DNA of 64,000 nucleotides. Origin: Escherichia coli. GTDB lineage: Bacteria; Pseudomonadota; Gammaproteobacteria; Enterobacterales; Enterobacteriaceae. Location of the stretch: assembly GCF_001677475.2 (NCBI RefSeq), contig NZ_CP015229.1, one strand, 5' to 3'. The notes under the pieces were generated by a model. It had not been told where the DNA came from. It did not search any database and saw nothing but the letters and a program-made list of their open reading frames with translations. Position numbers and translations under genes: made by a program. The stretch's first letter is position 1. Each line of letters starts with the position of its first letter. Of this stretch, positions 3,045-55,527 are shown piece by piece.

Positions 3045-4178
3045 ATGTCATCACTGAATATTAAACAGGGAAGTGACGCTCATTTTCCTGAGTATCCTCT
3101 GGCGTCGCCCAGTAATAATGAAATTGATTTACTTAATCTAATCGAAGTTTTATGGCGGGCCAAAAAAACGGTCATGGCGGTCGTTTTTGCATTTGCCTGC
3201 GCAGGTTTACTGATCTCTTTCATCCTGCCGCAAAAATGGACCAGCTCAGCCGTTATTACTCCCGCCGAAGCCATTCAGTGGCAGGACCTGGAGAAAACCT
3301 TTACCAAACTCCGCGTTCTTGATCTCGATGTTAATATCGACCGTGGCGGTGCATTTAACCTGTTTATCAAGAAGTTTCAGTCGGTTAGCTTGCTGGAAGA
3401 GTACCTACGTTCATCACCTTATGTGATGGACCAATTAAAAGAGGCGAAAATCGACGAACTGGATTTGCATCGCGCAATTGTCGCATTGAGCGAAAAAATG
3501 AAAGCGGTTGATGACAATGCCAGTAAGAAAAAAGATGAACCGTCACTGTATACCTCCTGGACGCTAACTTTTACCGCACCAACCAGTGAAGAAGCGAAGA
3601 CCGTTTTGAGCGGGTATATCGATTATATCTCTGCGTTGGTGGTGAAAGAGTCGATAGAAAACGTCCGTAATAAACTGGAGATCAAAACCCAGTTTGAAAA
3701 AGAAAAACTGGCTCAGGATCGCATTAAAACGAAAAATCAACTTGATGCAAACATTCAGCGCCTCAATTATTCACTCGACATTGCCAACGCGGCAGGAATT
3801 AAAAAGCCCGTATACAGTAATGGTCAGGCCGTTAAAGATGACCCCGATTTCTCTATTTCTCTCGGCGCAGACGGTATTGAACGCAAACTGGAAATTGAAA
3901 AAGCGGTCACTGACGTTGCGGAACTGAACGGTGAATTACGTAATCGTCAGTATCTTGTTGAGCAGTTAACAAAAGCAAATATCAACGATGTGAATTTTAC
4001 GCCATTTAAATATCAGTTAAGCCCGTCATTGCCAGTGAAAAAAGACGGTCCGGGTAAGGCGATTATTGTGATCCTTTCCGCGTTGATCGGCGGAATGGTG
4101 GCTTGTGGTGGCGTGCTGTTGCGCCATGCGATGGCATCCAGAAAACAGGATGCCATGATGGCAGACCACTTAGTTTAA
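3045..4178 (+). CDS. fepE: Polysaccharide co-polymerase (Wzz-like chain-length regulator)
   Basis: 377-aa ORF with N- and C-terminal hydrophobic segments flanking a long coiled periplasmic region; position between entF and fepC. Confidence 0.9.
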   Translation: MSSLNIKQGSDAHFPEYPLASPSNNEIDLLNLIEVLWRAKKTVMAVVFAFACAGLLISFILPQKWTSSAVITPAEAIQWQDLEKTFTKLRVLDLDVNIDRGGAFNLFIKKFQSVSLLEEYLRSSPYVMDQLKEAKIDELDLHRAIVALSEKMKAVDDNASKKKDEPSLYTSWTLTFTAPTSEEAKTVLSGYIDYISALVVKESIENVRNKLEIKTQFEKEKLAQDRIKTKNQLDANIQRLNYSLDIANAAGIKKPVYSNGQAVKDDPDFSISLGADGIERKLEIEKAVTDVAELNGELRNRQYLVEQLTKANINDVNFTPFKYQLSPSLPVKKDGPGKAIIVILSALIGGMVACGGVLLRHAMASRKQDAMMADHLV

Positions 4179-14584: not shown

Positions 14585-16690
14585 ATGAACAAATCAGGGA
14601 AATACCTCGTCTGGACAGTGCTCTCTGTAATGGGAGCATTTGCTCTGGGATACATTGCTTTAAATCGTGGGGAACAGATCAACGCGCTGTGGATTGTGGT
14701 GGCGTCGGTCTGTATCTATCTGATCGCTTATCGTTTTTATGGTCTGTATATCGCCAAAAATGTGCTGGCGGTTGACCCGACGCGTATGACGCCAGCGGTG
14801 CGCCATAACGACGGGCTGGATTATGTGCCGACGGACAAGAAAGTGCTGTTCGGTCACCATTTTGCGGCCATTGCCGGAGCTGGTCCGTTGGTGGGGCCGG
14901 TGCTGGCAGCGCAAATGGGCTACCTGCCGGGGATGATCTGGCTGCTTGCTGGGGTGGTTCTCGCCGGTGCGGTACAGGATTTCATGGTGCTGTTTGTTTC
15001 CACGCGCCGTGACGGTCGCTCGCTGGGTGAGCTGGTCAAAGAAGAGATGGGGCCAACCGCCGGGGTGATTGCGCTGGTTGCCTGCTTTATGATCATGGTC
15101 ATCATCCTTGCCGTGCTGGCGATGATCGTGGTGAAAGCCCTGACCCATAGCCCGTGGGGAACGTATACCGTTGCGTTCACCATTCCGCTGGCGCTGTTCA
15201 TGGGGATCTACCTGCGCTATCTGCGTCCAGGGCGTATTGGCGAAGTGTCGGTCATTGGCCTGGTGTTCCTGATTTTCGCCATTATCTCTGGCGGCTGGGT
15301 GGCAGAAAGTCCGACCTGGGCACCGTACTTTGACTTTACCGGCGTGCAGCTGACCTGGATGCTGGTGGGTTACGGCTTCGTGGCGGCGGTGCTGCCGGTG
15401 TGGTTGCTGCTGGCCCCGCGTGACTACCTCTCAACCTTCCTGAAAATCGGGACTATTGTCGGTCTGGCGGTAGGCATTCTGATTATGCGCCCGACGCTGA
15501 CCATGCCTGCTCTGACCAAATTTGTTGATGGCACTGGCCCGGTATGGACCGGTAACCTGTTCCCGTTCCTGTTTATTACTATCGCCTGTGGCGCGGTGTC
15601 TGGCTTCCATGCGCTGATCTCTTCTGGCACCACGCCGAAGATGCTGGCGAACGAAGGGCAGGCGTGCTTTATCGGCTACGGTGGGATGTTAATGGAATCC
15701 TTCGTGGCGATTATGGCGCTGGTTTCCGCCTGTATCATCGATCCGGGCGTTTACTTCGCAATGAACAGCCCAATGGCGGTGCTGGCTCCGGCAGGGACGG
15801 CGGATGTGGTTGCTTCTGCCGCGCAGGTGGTGAGTAGCTGGGGCTTTGCGATTACCCCGGATACGCTAAACCAGATTGCCAGCGAAGTGGGTGAACAGTC
15901 GATCATTTCCCGTGCGGGCGGTGCGCCGACCCTGGCGGTGGGGATGGCCTACATTCTGCACGGTGCGCTGGGCGGCATGATGGATGTGGCGTTCTGGTAT
16001 CACTTCGCCATTCTGTTTGAAGCACTGTTTATTCTGACGGCGGTGGATGCAGGTACGCGTGCTGCGCGCTTTATGTTGCAGGATCTGCTGGGCGTGGTGT
16101 CTCCGGGCCTGAAACGGACAGATTCTCTGCCTGCTAACCTGCTGGCAACGGCGCTGTGTGTGCTGGCGTGGGGCTACTTCCTGCATCAGGGCGTGGTCGA
16201 TCCGCTGGGCGGTATTAACACCCTGTGGCCGCTGTTTGGTATTGCCAACCAGATGCTGGCAGGGATGGCGCTGATGCTCTGTGCCGTAGTGCTGTTCAAG
16301 ATGAAACGTCAACGTTACGCCTGGGTGGCGCTGGTGCCAACGGCCTGGCTGCTGATTTGTACCCTGACCGCAGGCTGGCAGAAAGCGTTCAGCCCGGATG
16401 CGAAAGTGGGCTTCCTGGCCATTGCTAATAAGTTCCAGGCAATGATCGACAGCGGTAATATTCCGTCGCAGTATACTGAGTCACAACTGGCGCAACTGGT
16501 GTTCAACAACCGTCTGGATGCCGGGTTGACCATCTTCTTTATGGTGGTTGTGGTGGTTCTGGCGCTGTTCTCGATTAAGACGGCACTGGCGGCATTGAAA
16601 GAGCCGAAGCCAACGGCGAAAGAAACGCCGTATGAGCCAATGCCGGAAAATGTCGAGGAGATCGTGGCGCAGGCGAAAGGCGCGCACTAA
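14585..16690 (+). CDS. cstA: Carbon starvation protein A (peptide/pyruvate transporter family)
   Basis: 701-aa polytopic membrane ORF; characteristic N-terminus MNKSGKYLVWT. Confidence 0.95.
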   Translation: MNKSGKYLVWTVLSVMGAFALGYIALNRGEQINALWIVVASVCIYLIAYRFYGLYIAKNVLAVDPTRMTPAVRHNDGLDYVPTDKKVLFGHHFAAIAGAGPLVGPVLAAQMGYLPGMIWLLAGVVLAGAVQDFMVLFVSTRRDGRSLGELVKEEMGPTAGVIALVACFMIMVIILAVLAMIVVKALTHSPWGTYTVAFTIPLALFMGIYLRYLRPGRIGEVSVIGLVFLIFAIISGGWVAESPTWAPYFDFTGVQLTWMLVGYGFVAAVLPVWLLLAPRDYLSTFLKIGTIVGLAVGILIMRPTLTMPALTKFVDGTGPVWTGNLFPFLFITIACGAVSGFHALISSGTTPKMLANEGQACFIGYGGMLMESFVAIMALVSACIIDPGVYFAMNSPMAVLAPAGTADVVASAAQVVSSWGFAITPDTLNQIASEVGEQSIISRAGGAPTLAVGMAYILHGALGGMMDVAFWYHFAILFEALFILTAVDAGTRAARFMLQDLLGVVSPGLKRTDSLPANLLATALCVLAWGYFLHQGVVDPLGGINTLWPLFGIANQMLAGMALMLCAVVLFKMKRQRYAWVALVPTAWLLICTLTAGWQKAFSPDAKVGFLAIANKFQAMIDSGNIPSQYTESQLAQLVFNNRLDAGLTIFFMVVVVVLALFSIKTALAALKEPKPTAKETPYEPMPENVEEIVAQAKGAH

Positions 16691-16706
16691 AGTCAGAGTG
16701 AGGGGG

Positions 16707-16736
16707 GAATGTTGGCGAATGTTGGCGAAAGTTGGC
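16707..16736. repeat. Tandem 10-mer repeat, three copies
   Basis: gaatgttggc gaatgttggc gaaagttggc, lying between the cstA stop and the second copy of the GC-rich palindrome. Confidence 0.6.
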
Positions 16737-16748
16737 ATGGTGCCGAGG

Positions 16749-16793
16749 GTTCCCCCTCACCCTAACCCTCTCCCCGGTGGGGTGAGGGGACTG
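16749..16793. repeat. GC-rich palindromic intergenic element, copy 2
   Basis: ccccctcaccctaaccctctcccc ggt ggggtgaggggac; same core and orientation as 8354-8396. Confidence 0.6.
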
Positions 16794-16853
16794 ACCGAGC
16801 GCGTTGATAGCTATTAATGCACTCTCTCAGCAATCTGATTACCGGAGGTATTG

Positions 16854-17051
16854 ATGTTTGATTCACTGGCAAAAGCCGGAAAATATTTAGGTCAGGCGGC
16901 GAAGCTGATGATTGGTATGCCTGATTACGACAACTATGTCGAACATATGCGGGTTAACCATCCCGATCAAACGCCGATGACCTACGAAGAGTTTTTCCGT
17001 GAGCGGCAGGACGCGCGCTACGGTGGAAAAGGTGGCGCGCGCTGCTGCTAA
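16854..17051 (+). CDS. ybdD: Small DUF466-family protein paired with cstA
   Basis: 65 aa from the ATG at 16854, with GGAGG upstream; conserved cstA-ybdD pairing. Confidence 0.85.
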
Positions 17052-26541: not shown

Positions 26542-26664
26542 AAGCATTCTCTCCTTGTTTTTGCATGTATACATAACAGCACATTATTGGTTATGAATCT
26601 ATAATTTGCGAGGCTGATTTGATCTGAATTTGCTATTGAGCTGGAAAATAAATAAAACCAGGCG

Positions 26665-26754
26665 CTACCAGCGTTGTTCAAGGTATAGCACTGCAGCAAC
26701 AATAATTGCTGCTATGAATATATAAAATGCAGTGATACCGAGAGCTTCGCTCAT
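26665..26754 (-). CDS. Hypothetical 29-aa hydrophobic small protein (unverified)
   Basis: ATG-to-TAG ORF MSEALGITAFYIFIAAIIVAAVLYLEQRW, one predicted transmembrane helix; weak GGAA upstream. Could be a chance ORF. Confidence 0.15.
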   Translation of the reverse strand: MSEALGITAFYIFIAAIIVAAVLYLEQRW

Positions 26755-26896
26755 ATGAGGTTCCGCAGATGAATAACCAGTTCAGATTAGAATGCTGCGC
26801 TTAAGAGCAAAATGATAAATCTGGTTGATATTTGAGCGGAAAGAGGATGCGAGTGCATCCTCTGGGCAAAGCGAGTTATCGCTTGTGCAGATGGGA

Positions 26897-37922: not shown

Positions 37923-39308
37923 TTACTTGCCTGTGACCACTGCTGCCGTTCCTGGCACCATCAGCTCTGTAGCAACGATAACAATCACTAGCCCAACAAG
38001 CACCGGCACCGAGGTGCGTTTTACGACTTCAAATGGTGAGATTTTCGCCATCCCGGCAACCGCAACGACTACGCCAGAAACGGGTGATAGGGTACGACCC
38101 AGGTTTGACGCCTGCAGCATCGGGATAGTCAAATACGCCGGGTTAATGCCGGAAGAGTGCGCCAGTTTCGGGATCATCTCAACAAACGCATAAAACGGCG
38201 CATTGCCTGAACCGGTCGTGACTGCCGCCAGCATTGTCAGAATCACCAATACCAGCATCAGGATGATACTCGCCGAACCAAACGAGGTAGCAATAGAAAT
38301 CAGACTTTGAATAAAGCCGATGGTGCTAAGCCCCTGAGCGAATACCCCAGCGGCAACCAGCAGCATCACCACGTTAGCAAACGCATCTGCCATCCCGCGA
38401 TAAGCCACTTCCAGACCAGAGAAAACTTTCTGGGTATTAAAGCTGCGGATGAACTCCAGAATGGAGGCAATCAGCATACAAATCACCAGAATAGTGATGA
38501 TGTGTAATTGCGGACCCCATTTGCCGTCAAAAATCAGTACACCGATGATAGGCGTGAACGGCAAAATGGCATAAAACGCAGGAGCAGTGGTGGTGATTTC
38601 ACTGACATCTAACATTTCATGAGAGATGTGCTCTTTTTTATCCAGATAACGTTGCCAGAAGAAGTGGGCGATCGCCATGCCGATAATTGCAGCAATTGAG
38701 ATAGGCAGCGTCGTTTTGAAGGCGAAGTCAATCAGCGACATTTCGGAAGCCTGCGCCGCCAGCACCACATCCCCTGAAGTCGGTGCGAGAATAATCGCCG
38801 CCGGGGAGGCACAAATGGCAGCTGCTGCGCCACGACTGATACCAACGTTTACCATCACCGGAAACAGGGTTGCCATCAGCAAAACACCCAGACCGGTCGC
38901 GGAAGAGACGGCCAGAGACATCAGACAGGCGACAAAATAGGCGGCAATCATCAGCAGGTAAGGGGAGTTAATATACTGCAATGGTTTTGACGCCAGCTTG
39001 ACCACCATATCATTCGCGCCGATATGGGTCATGTAAGCGGCAAAGCCACACAGCATCATAATCATCATGCCGAGGTCGCCGCCGCGGCTCATTAGCAATA
39101 TTTTAACGTATTCAACGATATCCGTGGCGCTGTAGCCTGTTGAAGCCTGGCTGGACGGTAACACTTTGTGCCCCATAATGGCACTGATAATCAGCAATAA
39201 CAGGCCACCGACAAATAACACGCCAGTGGCGGAATACCCTTTAATGATGTAGCGAGCTACACCCACAATAACCACAACCCCAATAAGGAGTTCAATGAAT
39301 GTCAGCAT
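37923..39308 (-). CDS. dcuC: Anaerobic C4-dicarboxylate transporter
   Basis: 461-aa polytopic membrane ORF; uninterrupted. Confidence 0.93.
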   Translation of the reverse strand: MLTFIELLIGVVVIVGVARYIIKGYSATGVLFVGGLLLLIISAIMGHKVLPSSQASTGYSATDIVEYVKILLMSRGGDLGMMIMMLCGFAAYMTHIGANDMVVKLASKPLQYINSPYLLMIAAYFVACLMSLAVSSATGLGVLLMATLFPVMVNVGISRGAAAAICASPAAIILAPTSGDVVLAAQASEMSLIDFAFKTTLPISIAAIIGMAIAHFFWQRYLDKKEHISHEMLDVSEITTTAPAFYAILPFTPIIGVLIFDGKWGPQLHIITILVICMLIASILEFIRSFNTQKVFSGLEVAYRGMADAFANVVMLLVAAGVFAQGLSTIGFIQSLISIATSFGSASIILMLVLVILTMLAAVTTGSGNAPFYAFVEMIPKLAHSSGINPAYLTIPMLQASNLGRTLSPVSGVVVAVAGMAKISPFEVVKRTSVPVLVGLVIVIVATELMVPGTAAVVTGK

Positions 39309-39896
39309 AATTTTTCCTGTCTCCAGGCCCCAAAGTAAATAATAAAAAATTCCTAAAACTTAAGGAAAAAATATGCCCAATAAATTGGCGATGAATGCTG
39401 ATTAAAATCAAGAAAAACTGCCATTAACACATTGAAGTTACTGTTTTTATACATAGATAACAAAACACATATTTAGCGGTTGGTAATTATCACATAATAA
39501 TGTGTGTAAATTGATGGCGGATTGATGCAAATTTGTTAATAGCAATGGTGTTAGCTGCGATTGCGTGCTCAAAAAATAATCTGTAATGAGCATGGGTTGA
39601 CGATATATAATATATTTTTCGTTAAGATTCTTTTTGTATGTTGTTAAAAAATAAAGTAATTTTATCCTGGTTGTATTTTGTTATCAGAACCGACTTGCTT
39701 TTTATTTAATGACTATTCCCATCACAGAAAACGAAGTATCATCTTAAATCGATGCGCGGAAATATTTAACTTGAACAAGCGGAAATAAATAGAGCAGCTA
39801 TTCAGATTATTCTTTATATTGGGGCTATTAAGGTTATGTTAATTGTAGCTTTGCTATGCTAGTAGTAGATTTTTGATAAATGTTTTATGGTCACAA

Positions 39897-40457
39897 ATGA
39901 ACGTGAGTAAGTATGTCGCTATCTTTTCCTTTGTTTTTATTCAGTTAATCAGCGTTGGTAAAGTTTTTGCTAACGCAGATGAGTGGATGACAACGTTTGG
40001 AGAAAATATTACACAAACCTGGCAACAGCCTGAACATTATGATTTATATATTCCTGCCATCACCTGGCATGCTCGTTTCGCTTACGACAAAGAAAAAACC
40101 GATCGCTATAACGAGCGACCGTGGGGTGGCGGTTTTGGTCAGTCGCGATGGGATGAAAAAGGAAACTGGCATGGCCTGTATGCCATGGCATTTAAGGACT
40201 CGTGGAACAAATGGGAACCGATTGCCGGATACGGATGGGAAAGTACCTGGCGACCGCTGGCGGATGAAAATTTTCATTTAGGACTGGGATTCACCGCTGG
40301 CGTAACGGCACGCGATAACTGGAATTACATCCCTCTCCCGGTTCTACTGCCATTGGCCTCTGTGGGTTATGGTCCAGTGACTTTTCAGATGACCTACATT
40401 CCGGGTACCTATAACAATGGCAATGTGTACTTTGCCTGGATGCGCTTTCAGTTTTGA
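39897..40457 (+). CDS. pagP: Lipid A palmitoyltransferase (outer-membrane beta-barrel)
   Basis: ORF-track TTG start trimmed to ATG at 39897 ([10 protein letters not shown]...); 186 aa. Confidence 0.9.
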
Positions 40458-40631
40458 GACAAATGAAATTTTAGTAAACTCTTTAAAATCAATGGGTAAA
40501 ATAATTAACATCAAAAATAACGCGACTTTTATCACTTTTTAGTAAAGTTGCACTGGACAAAGCGTACCACAATTGGTGTACTGGTAACCGACACAGCATT
40601 TGTGTCTATTTTTCATGTAAAGGTAATTTTG

Positions 40632-40841
40632 ATGTCTAAGATTAAAGGTAACGTTAAGTGGTTTAATGAGTCCAAAGGATTCGGTTTCATTACTCCGGAA
40701 GACGGCAGCAAAGACGTGTTCGTACACTTCTCTGCAATCCAGACTAATGGTTTTAAAACTCTTGCTGAAGGTCAGCGCGTAGAGTTCGAAATCACTAACG
40801 GTGCCAAAGGCCCTTCTGCTGCAAACGTAATCGCTCTGTAA
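40632..40841 (+). CDS. cspE: Cold-shock-domain protein
   Basis: 69 aa; RNP1 motif KGFGFI. Confidence 0.97.
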
Positions 40842-40860
40842 GATACGTCAGCAAGAATTC

Positions 40861-40889
40861 AAAACCCGCTTAATCAGCGGGTTTTTTTT
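40861..40889. terminator. Bidirectional intrinsic terminator between cspE and crcB
   Basis: aaacccgct-taatc-agcgggttt hairpin flanked by an A-run and a T8 run. Confidence 0.7.
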
Positions 40890-40894
40890 GGTCT

Positions 40895-41278
40895 TTAGTG
40901 TGCGGTTGAGGCTGAAAACAGCCAGAATGCCAGTGCGGTCATGGCAAAAGAGCCCAGAAGGTTGACGAAAACGTTCAGTAATGCCCAGCCAAAGCGACCC
41001 TCTTGTAACAAAAACACCACTTCTGCCGAAAATGTTGAGAAGGTTGTTAGACCGCCACAAAATCCGGTGGTGATTAATACTTTCCACACTGGATCAATGT
41101 TCGTCATCCTGCTGAACCAGGCGAATCCCATTCCTATGATGAATGCCCCAATCAGGTTTGCTGTCAGCGTCCCCAACGGAATCGCCTGATGCAGTGGGTT
41201 AAATCGCATACTTAACAGCCATCTCGCCACGCTTCCCGTACCACCGCCAATAAAAACTGCTAAAAGAAGTTGTAACAC
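40895..41278 (-). CDS. crcB: Fluoride channel
   Basis: 127-aa small membrane protein with four hydrophobic segments. Confidence 0.93.
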
Positions 41279-41370
41279 TGCAAAATCCTGCTATTTGATT
41301 TGTATGAGTGATAAGTGTAACGCCGAATAATCGTCGTTGGCGAATTTTACGACTCTGACAGGAGGTGGCA

Positions 41371-42159
41371 ATGCTGGTTGCTGCAGGACAGTTTGCTGTT
41401 ACATCTGTGTGGGAAAAGAACGCTGAGATTTGTGCCTCGTTGATGGCGCAGGCGGTGGAAAACGACGTATCGCTGTTTGTCCTGCCGGAAGCATTGCTGG
41501 CGCGCGATGATCATGATGCAGATCTATCGGTTAAATCAGCACAGCTGCTGGAAGGCGAATTCCTCGGACGTTTACGGCGAGAAAGTAAACGTAACATGAT
41601 GACGACAATTCTGACGATTCATGTTCCTTCAACGCCGGGGCGCGCATGGAATATGCTGGTGGCACTTCAGGCAGGAAACATCGTCGCCCGTTATGCCAAA
41701 CTGCATCTCTATGATGCATTTGCCATTCAGGAATCACGTCATGTTGATGCTGGTAATGAAATAGCTCCGTTACTGGAGGTGGAAGGGATGAAGGTCGGTC
41801 TGATGACCTGTTATGACTTACGCTTTCCAGAGCTGGCGCTGGCACAGGCATTACAGGGAGCTGAAATCCTGGTAGTTCCTGCCGCCTGGGTTCGTGGGCC
41901 GCTCAAAGAGCATCACTGGTCAACGTTGCTTGCCGCTCGTGCGCTGGATACCACCTGTTATATGGTGGCGGCGGGGGAGTGCGGGAACAAAAATATCGGG
42001 CAAAGCCGAATTATAGATCCCTTTGGCGTCACGATTGCGGCAGCGTCAGAAATGCCTGCACTCATTATGGCGGAAGTGACGCCCGAACGTGTGCGTCAGG
42101 TGCGCGCGCAACTGCCCGTCTTAAACAACCGTCGCTTTGCGCCGCCGCAATTATTATGA
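41371..42159 (+). CDS. ybeM: Nitrilase-superfamily (C-N hydrolase) protein, intact reading frame
   Basis: 262 aa from the ATG, with GGAGG 5 nt upstream. Catalytic triad contexts present: Glu (VLPEAL), Lys (YAKLHLYD), Cys ([10 protein letters not shown]). Confidence 0.85.
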
Positions 42160-54949: not shown

Positions 54950-55527
54950 CAGTTACCCAGCGTAGTAGAGACGCGTGCAGGCGTTGCTGCAGTATCCGTT
55001 GTTTTCGACGTATCTTCGTCGGAACGGATATCCGCAGCGCGGATGCTTGGCAGCTTACGTATCAGCTGTTCGGCAGCACGGTCGTACATCTCTTGAATGA
55101 TCATGCTTTGCTCATTATCTTTCGCTAACGCCATTTGCGGGTTATCGAAGAACGAACGGAAGACTTTGGCGCTAATCGGGTAGATGTCACGGCCAGGGAT
55201 CAATACTGACGCGCTGACAGTCATCACCATTTGATATTCAGCGGTTTGACCATTACGGAAAACTGAAGCGGTATCCTGGGAGATTGATACAGCACCCAAA
55301 CGCAGGGATGGAACATCCTTACGCGTGGTTTCTTTATCAAGCAACTCAACACCGTTCAGACGCAACTGATTACGCACCGCACGGCTTAACGGCCCGTTCG
55401 GGTCGCCAGAGTCCAGGATCATGACCTTCATAGTGGAAGGAACCTGCGTGGTATCACGCAGATGCCAGCCACACCCGGCGGTGATTAACACCGCCAGAGA
55501 TAACAACAATGTTGCCAGATATCGCAC
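54949..55527 (-). CDS. lptE: LPS assembly lipoprotein
   Basis: 192 aa; lipobox ITAGC; 1-nt overlap with holA. Confidence 0.93.

Follow-up and report, generated by a model that had tools for sequence, protein, structure and literature searches.

Why is the spacer between the divergent genes dcuC and pagP so long, and does it hide a gene? We addressed these questions in a 64-kb stretch of an Escherichia coli chromosome (hereafter the window) by combining comparative sequence analysis with published data. We read the spacer as the common control region of both genes, with a promoter at each end, an H-NS-coated middle and no gene in between, and put the probability of this reading at roughly 0.8. 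In this respect, the dcuC-pagP spacer is an ordinary, already-characterised divergent regulatory region, and its regulators FNR, PhoP, H-NS and SlyA, together with RcsB/GadE, are known from published work. The experimental data on FNR, sigma70, H-NS, SlyA and RcsB all refer to the K-12 locus, and those on PhoP to Shigella and Salmonella. The useful outcome is a negative one, namely that the long spacer needs no hidden gene as its explanation. Besides, two new details emerged: an Escherichia-specific island and a block around a direct repeat that Escherichia shares with Citrobacter.

Position, composition and gene context

In the ORF map of the window, the dcuC(-)/pagP(+) spacer spans 588 bp; as the ATG of dcuC on the minus strand ends at 39308 and that of pagP starts at 39897, its limits are exactly 39309-39896 (Table 1). 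The proteins encoded on both sides are 99.6% (DcuC) and 98.4% (PagP) identical to their K-12 counterparts, and both gene names also correspond to the RefSeq E. coli annotation. The same holds for the neighbourhood of dpiB-dpiA, dcuC, pagP, cspE and crcB in the window, as the genes on either side carry the same annotation in RefSeq E. coli genomes. With a G+C content of 0.29-0.32 (about 30%) versus about 0.5 in the flanks, the spacer is clearly AT-rich. It is also the longest intergenic gap in the collinear 70 kb of the K-12 annotation, where the next gaps measure 378, 374 and 371 bp. Extent, base composition and unusual length had all been described correctly in the first-pass annotation of this DNA.

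The spacer of K-12 MG1655 likewise comprises 588 bp and aligns to that of the window without indels, so that a window coordinate equals the NC_000913.3 coordinate minus 616,660. Positions given for U00096.2 were converted by subtracting 615,883, which was verified on the FNR motif (655,281 = 39398). Across the 64 kb, identity to K-12 is 96.6-97.7%, which places the DNA in E. coli, broadly defined. In its spacer, the window carries a rare allele: of 5,413 complete E. coli genomes, the closest reaches 96.9%, and most reach 93-94%.

Table 1. Features of the dcuC-pagP spacer and its borders in window coordinates.
Feature	Position	Strand	Remarks
dcuC coding sequence, anaerobic C4-dicarboxylate transporter	37923-39308	-	461-aa ORF; borders the spacer on the left
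Predicted dcuC 5' leader, about 55 nt	39309-39363	-	start placed by the FNR box at -41.5
-10-like hexamer CATATT (CACATT in other genera)	39370-39375	-	within conserved AAATRTGCCnAATAA
FNR box CTGATTAAAATCAA	39398-39411		9/10 consensus positions (1 mismatch to TTGAT-N4-ATCAA)
Near-palindrome tgtttttatacatagataacaaaaca	39442-39467		centred about 91 bp upstream of the start predicted for dcuC
Conserved block ATTGATG-gcgg-ATTGATG-caaat-TTGTTAAT	39510-39541		three related 6-7-mers in 11-bp phase
Escherichia-specific hypervariable AT-rich island	39560-39749		gapped in all non-Escherichia spacers
Weak RcsB-box-like element TCAGATTATTCTTT, tentative pagP upstream element	39802-39815		10/14 to TAAGAATATTCCTA
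Direct repeat TATTAA-ggtta-TGTTAA (PhoP-box-type, ArcA-type)	39826-39842	+	12 nt upstream of the -10
pagP -10 hexamer TATGCT	39855-39860	+	TAnnnT invariant in all genera
Predicted pagP 5' leader, about 30 nt	39867-39896	+	start placed by the -10 position and the Salmonella mapping
H-NS high-affinity motif match TTGATAAATG	39873-39882		8/10; chance gives about 2 per spacer
pagP coding sequence, lipid A palmitoyltransferase	39897-40457	+	ORF; right boundary of the spacer

Conservation across genera

A conservation profile had been named in the first-pass annotation as a way to check its reading of the spacer, and it does reveal conserved blocks. We collected 80 pagP loci from other Enterobacteriaceae, 47 of them with dcuC adjoining pagP, and based the phylogenetic footprint on an alignment of 16 spacers from at least eight genera. 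Spacer length rises from about 280-305 bp in Klebsiella, Raoultella and an Enterobacter sp. over 403 bp in Salmonella and 412-465 bp in most Citrobacter to 558-588 bp in Escherichia, and reaches up to about 1 kb where unrelated DNA has inserted. In the 16-spacer alignment, conservation across genera is limited to two blocks, 39365-39418 next to dcuC and 39825-39860 next to pagP. The remaining spacer is kept within Escherichia only or not at all, with the block 39510-39541 as the sole exception.

The dcuC promoter

The conserved block on the dcuC side combines an FNR box, kept in 16 of the 16 aligned spacers, with the sub-block 39365-39389 that includes a -10-like hexamer. Both elements occur together in 41 of the 47 dcuC-linked loci, and in these 92-106 bp separate the centre of the FNR box from the ATG of dcuC. 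In every genus aligned, the box starts with C instead of T, and a -35 element is not recognisable at this promoter. Further downstream, the stretch 39309-39363 has only moderate cross-genus identity (0.47-0.60) and contains the ribosome-binding site AGGAAAAATT directly before the ATG.

These elements fit well to the published data for K-12. There, ChIP-seq and ChIP-chip peaks demonstrate FNR occupancy upstream of dcuC, the motif given for the ChIP-seq peak is the same 14-mer as the FNR box of the window (Table S6), and dcuC is classed as FNR-activated with a 20-fold higher anaerobic expression (PMC3688515). The anaerobic sigma70 ChIP-seq peak at 655,235 of the same study corresponds to about 39352 in the window, and its authors remark for dcuC that the 'TSS is not in the peak region' (Myers et al., PMC3688515). 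The position of CATATT, read from 39375 to 39370, and the sigma70 peak are consistent with an FNR box near -41.5. On the basis of the sequence, we propose this position and, with it, that dcuC has a class II FNR promoter. In the absence of oxygen, FNR bound to CTGATTAAAATCAA would recruit sigma70 RNA polymerase to the -10-like hexamer; transcription would probably start near 39363, and the leader would measure about 55 nt.

The pagP promoter

On the pagP side, conservation centres on a direct repeat and the -10 hexamer. The repeat at 39826-39842 is the only match with one mismatch to TGTTAA-N5-TGTTAA in the 64-kb window, and both half-sites are kept in all genera aligned. Compared to the PhoP consensus (T/G)GTTTA-N5-(T/G)GTTTA, it agrees at 9 of 12 positions (3 mismatches); PhoP-type matches are common in this AT-rich spacer, with 11 observed versus 4 expected. 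A PhoP-activated promoter should have its box in direct orientation and, counted from the -10, a whole number of helical turns upstream (about 12 or 23 nt); the repeat shows this arrangement with a distance of 12 nt. The combination of PhoP-type repeat and TAnnnT is found in 49 of the 80 pagP loci. Upstream of it, the weak RcsB-box-like element has a core, 'TCnGATT', that is partly conserved across genera.

Dependence of pagP on PhoPQ, which the first-pass annotation had given as established knowledge, has direct experimental backing in two relatives. In Shigella flexneri, PhoP shifts a pagP promoter fragment and pagP depends on phoPQ (PMC5775216). For Salmonella pagP, the PhoP box TGTTTA-N5-TGTTAA was footprinted 23 nt from a TATTAT -10, and an S1-mapped start with a 16-nt leader as well as in vitro transcription were reported (PMC3335776). 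In the alignment, the Salmonella TATTAT falls on TATGCT, and TATTAA, the upstream half-site here, falls on the second half of the footprinted box. Since the half-site further upstream is degenerate in E. coli and the downstream one is better, we infer a PhoP pair 12 nt from the -10, which from its sequence would sit one helical turn closer than in Salmonella.

Besides PhoP, ArcA is a possible ligand. A motif match for ArcA in the K-12 spacer has been reported with no location given and no ChIP peak (PMC3798270); because 39826-39842 is the only one-mismatch TGTTAA-N5-TGTTAA in the 64 kb, it is presumably this match. A side possibility is that PhoP and ArcA both use the repeat, and this would account for the higher sigma70 occupancy of pagP under anaerobic conditions: in K-12, the sigma70 ChIP-seq peak at 655,742 (about 39859 in the window) is about 10-fold higher anaerobically, and pagP (crcA) itself is 3.4-fold higher anaerobically (PMC3688515). 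In the mechanism that we propose, the repeat occupies the usual -35 position 12 nt before TATGCT, where PhoP, and possibly ArcA, would bind and activate pagP. By homology with the mapped Salmonella promoter, transcription probably starts near 39867 and would give a leader of about 30 nt.

H-NS and further regulators

The spacer is AT-rich relative to the genome, as is typical for H-NS-bound regions, and the K-12 data bear out the earlier idea of a divergent regulatory hub occupied by nucleoid proteins. The H-NS ChIP-chip regions 654,590-655,558 and 655,584-656,283 (PMC3688515, Table S3) map to about 38707-39675 and 39701-40400 of the window, that is, to the whole spacer and into both genes. 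The FNR site lies within one of these regions, contrary to Table S6 of the same paper, which gives 'None' in the nucleoid-protein column for this site. Genomic SELEX recovered the K-12 spacer as bound by RNA polymerase holoenzyme and flagged it 'HNS' (PMC3946193). Mutation of hns derepresses pagP 18-fold, and the gene is SlyA-dependent (Chalabaev et al., PMC4147861). Expression of pagP also depends on RcsB/GadE (Szczesny et al., PMC6106083).

Consensus scans of the spacer returned no credible match for an ArcA 15-mer, SlyA, CRP, IHF, Fur or NarL. A scan for TTAGCAAGCTAA gave no match with up to three mismatches, and SlyA and RcsB/GadE sites were not located by these scans. Matches to EvgA, GadE, RcsB and H-NS motifs are present, weak and near chance level. 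We suppose that the AT-rich middle of the spacer (39412-39825, about 410 bp) acts mainly as a substrate for H-NS. The H-NS coat continues into both genes and silences pagP as long as SlyA, RcsB-GadE or PhoP does not counteract it.

Repeats in the spacer and the block 39510-39541

Two motifs had been singled out in the first-pass annotation, the near-palindrome and the direct repeat ttgatggcggattgatgc at about 39511-39528, in which ATTGATG occurs twice at a distance of 11 bp from start to start. Both are present, and neither is more than chance would provide as a repeat: judged by 300 composition-matched shuffles, 6.7 inverted repeats with arms of 6 nt or more are expected and 6 were observed, and for direct repeats of 7 nt or longer the expected number is 1.5 and the observed number 2. 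With up to three mismatches, the near-palindrome was recovered in all E. coli loci fetched and remained unmatched in other species. The alignment shows it near-identical in two other Escherichia species, and in Citrobacter and Salmonella the T-rich left arm alone is recognisable. The ATTGATG repeat motif does not recur beyond chance elsewhere in the window.

What sets the direct repeat apart is its location inside the conserved block 39510-39541. The pattern TTGATG-N5-TTGATG-N6-TGTTAAT (39511-39540) is present with up to three mismatches in all Escherichia loci and in 10 loci of Citrobacter; in the six loci for which the distance to the dcuC ATG was measured, it amounts to 171-213 bp. The aligned Klebsiella and Raoultella spacers of about 290 bp lack the block. 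This block is a candidate for a factor-binding site, and the left part of the middle may serve a further factor in addition to H-NS. As a 32-bp phased repeat block common to Escherichia and Citrobacter, it is a new detail worth follow-up.

A hypervariable island in the centre

The central 190 bp differ from K-12 at 34 positions (17.9%), 3.3 times the divergence at 4-fold sites of the flanking genes (5.4%), and the outer parts of the spacer diverge by 3.2% and 1.4%. Among nine E. coli alleles, 33% of the island columns segregate, compared to 8-12% of the third-codon positions in the flanks. Between O157 and K-12, there are 35 differences in the island and 8 in the other about 1010 bp. This places the island among the three most diverged sites of the 64 kb; because the entF-fepE spacer and a stretch in lptE are comparable, such divergence spikes are not unique to it. 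The best island match among the 5,413 complete E. coli genomes is 94.7% identical. Alleles appear to differ between lineages and not within them, which argues against a phase-variable locus.

In E. coli, the island is single copy, and it has no match to a phage, a true plasmid or an insertion sequence. Some apparent 'plasmid' matches were rejected as mislabelled chromosomes. Other genera carry insertions at the same place, among them Enterobacter, Kosakonia and Silvania, and these are unrelated and show no similarity to the island. The hexamers predicted for the spacer from selection by RNA polymerase in vitro (PMC3946193) were placed in the island by us. All in all, the island reads as an H-NS-bound, tolerant filler zone between two fixed promoters that contains no gene, and it appears that base composition is kept here and not sequence.

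Alternative readings of the spacer middle

Room for an unannotated small RNA had been seen in this spacer, and this part of the earlier description finds no support. We consider it very unlikely that the middle gives rise to a small RNA or cryptic transcript, perhaps silenced by H-NS, or that dcuC has a long leader from a distal promoter. Some observations would fit: a weak promoter-like site, CTGATA-17-TAAAAT, lies on the minus strand at 39687-39659; RNA polymerase holoenzyme selects the spacer in vitro, with the predicted hexamers placed in the island; and an inverted repeat (39305-39318/39363-39376) might, if the leader were longer, mask the ribosome-binding site of dcuC. Folding of 46 windows on both strands yielded one segment below -2, the plus strand of 39555-39654 (z = -2.9), and A-to-G changes among the alleles keep G-U pairs in its first stem (39566-39571/39587-39592). 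Across nine alleles, however, the predicted folds of this segment differ, with energies from -14.7 to -21.7 and a consensus that keeps two short hairpins only. A small RNA gene would be expected to have its own promoter or start and a terminator, together with conserved sequence or structure or membership in a known family, and the spacer displays none of these sets. A permissive Rfam scan of 38800-41000 found nothing in the spacer, with none better than E = 2.5, and the only real match in the scanned region is the cspA-type element at cspE. Terminator-like sites are lacking in the promoter/terminator scan of the spacer, and promoter-like sites number 1 versus 4.1 in shuffles. Anaerobic sigma70 ChIP-seq in K-12 has no peak between about 39352 and 39859 (PMC3688515), and we found no literature record of a small RNA in the spacer. 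The start-site mapping that had been proposed as a check is also negative where published K-12 tables cover it: Cappable-seq has no plus-strand start from about 38717 to 40507, and the table of Kim et al. 2012 has none in the spacer. Both come from cultures that would not induce either promoter, and these two negatives are weak evidence against a small RNA when taken alone. Moreover, there is only one stretch that could accommodate a gene, and conservation of the spacer is lowest there. A small protein is more improbable still, in agreement with the earlier verdict that there is no convincing ORF. Several short ORFs exist, for instance a hydrophobic one of 23 aa (39638-39709) and one of 48 aa on the minus strand (39447-39593), but the ATG of the former is ATC in K-12 and the latter is truncated in 4 of 9 alleles. 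The ORFs that stay open in all nine E. coli alleles lie in the conserved left part only and use TTG or GTG starts; they show no constraint at the protein level, and in a 36-aa minus-strand ORF each variable site alters the protein. The RefSeq annotation of MG1655 has no feature inside the spacer either. Together with the hypervariability of the island, these negatives for small RNAs and ORFs make a gene in the middle of the spacer unlikely.

The island could also be more than filler, that is, a strain-specific module that sets the silencing of pagP by H-NS or a cryptic promoter, shaped by diversifying selection or maintained as old balanced alleles. Divergence far above that of 4-fold sites, its concentration in the island between O157 and K-12, and the existence of several deep alleles that apparently differ between lineages would all suit such a module, as would the G+C content of 0.27-0.31 in all alleles, the few indels despite a high substitution rate and the strong control of pagP by H-NS. 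Nevertheless, we regard this as an unlikely explanation: at least three other places of the same 64 kb have similar divergence spikes, other genera lack the island altogether and still have the same core promoter at pagP, and the unrelated insertions found there in those genera are what an unconstrained zone would be expected to collect. Somewhat less probable again is the specific version in which the island allele acts as a fast-evolving 'rheostat' and determines how strong the H-NS filament between the promoters is or which geometry it takes. If this were true, basal or inducible lipid A palmitoylation by pagP would be lineage-specific, with diversifying selection imposed by hosts. As one of the fastest-evolving stretches of the 64 kb, the island could underlie strain differences in lipid A palmitoylation. 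The reading that we prefer remains the control region with two fixed promoter ends and a tolerant, H-NS-bound centre.

Comparison with known systems

The closest relative is the dcuC-pagP (crcA) region of E. coli K-12 (b0621/b0622), which is orthologous and equal in length and aligns without gaps. Both loci share the same FNR box, PhoP-type repeat and -10 elements, and identity is 97-99% in the outer 250 bp and 147 bp; the difference is confined mainly to the central 190 bp described above. At the dcuC end, the arrangement resembles FNR class II promoters with respect to the 9/10 box, a -10-like element at the spacing for -41.5 and the lack of a recognisable -35, and the anaerobic induction and FNR ChIP occupancy of K-12 dcuC are in line with this class. 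It deviates in that the box begins with C, and its assignment to -41.5 is deduced from sequence.

For the pagP end, the best comparison is Salmonella enterica pagP, a PhoP promoter of 'architecture IV' (Zwir et al. 2012, PMC3335776). The core promoters are orthologous with aligned -10s, the conserved TGTTAA half-site of Salmonella corresponds to TATTAA here, and both are virulence-associated promoters of the H-NS and SlyA type. In contrast to the 23 nt between box and -10 in Salmonella, the distance here is 12 nt, as in the simple phoP/mgtA type, and the upstream half-site is degenerate (TATATT). The Salmonella spacer is also shorter (403 bp) and lacks the island.

As a whole, the spacer belongs with the long AT-rich regions silenced by H-NS, such as hlyE with SlyA and H-NS (PMC2156107) or the 750-bp gadE region (PMC6106083). 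It shares with these the H-NS occupancy into the flanking genes and relief of the SlyA or RcsB type, and differs from them in that its visible conservation is limited to the ends of about 55 bp and 36 bp and the 32-bp block.

Sequence features on the dcuC side of the spacer

At the dcuC end of the spacer, a 14-nt inverted repeat with 13 of 14 complementary positions places the dcuC Shine-Dalgarno sequence and AUG opposite the predicted FNR promoter's -10 region. Masking of the dcuC ribosome-binding site by this repeat would be possible only for transcripts with a more upstream start. In Citrobacter, the complementarity is retained only in part. The palindrome TTCCTAAAACTTAAGGAA, with 15 of 18 positions fitting the EvgA consensus, is located at the predicted start site itself; E. 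coli K-12 retains this palindrome, but E. whittamii and Escherichia sp. E1V33 do not. Further into the spacer, a conserved phased composite repeat, TTGATG-N5-TTGATG-N6-TGTTAAT, is common to Escherichia and Citrobacter, and its distance to dcuC is roughly constant across both genera.

A variable center of the dcuC-pagP spacer

The AT-rich middle of the spacer forms an Escherichia-specific island with 17.9% divergence from K-12 compared with 5.4% at flanking 4-fold sites (3.3 times), and several deep alleles exist within E. coli, which apparently differ between lineages. In E. coli O18ac:H14 strain 873.10, the island is reduced to a 109-bp remnant with 95% identity to the window allele. This remnant lies between transposase genes of the IS3 family and of IS1, so insertion sequences have disrupted the spacer in this strain. 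In other genera with dcuC-pagP spacers of 700-1000 bp, the middle is occupied by unrelated insertions, including what look like fragments of an RND-type efflux pump gene as well as small ORFs with hydrophobic, membrane-protein-like sequence.

Features of the window in comparison to K-12

Downstream of pagP, a cspA-type thermoregulator (Rfam RF01766, 123 bits, E = 1.7e-32) spans cspE together with its leader. Between uspG and rnk, K-12 has a segment of about 1.6 kb, carrying ybdR and yldA, that is without counterpart in the window, where about 265 bp unalignable to K-12 are the sole sequence at this place. Elsewhere, divergence from K-12 rises in sharp spikes of 29-38 differences per 200 bp, compared with a median of 4. 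Besides, the window carries an intact ORF of 264 aa at the position that ybeM (deaminated glutathione amidase), a pseudogene with a frameshift, occupies in K-12.

Coordinates of the features in the window and in the comparison loci
Feature	Sequence	Position
Inverted repeat of dcuC, arms	window	39305-39318 and 39363-39376
Palindrome TTCCTAAAACTTAAGGAA	window	39350-39367
Phased composite repeat	window	39510-39541
Phased composite repeat	L009-L013, L016, L023, L024, L030, L034	about 2690-2780
Island	window	39560-39749
Island remnant locus	L090 (strain 873.10)	1-1509
Mid-spacer insertion	L055 (Kosakonia oryziphila)	2254-2931
Mid-spacer insertion	L022	2567-2830
Mid-spacer insertion	L056	2481-2666
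cspA-type thermoregulator	window	40531-40889
Sequence at the ybdR-yldA place	window	26560-26824
Divergence spike, entF-fepE spacer	window	3151-3450
Divergence spike, cstA-ybdD spacer	window	16651-16900
Divergence spike, inside lptE	window	55101-55400
Intact ORF at the ybeM place	window	41365-42159
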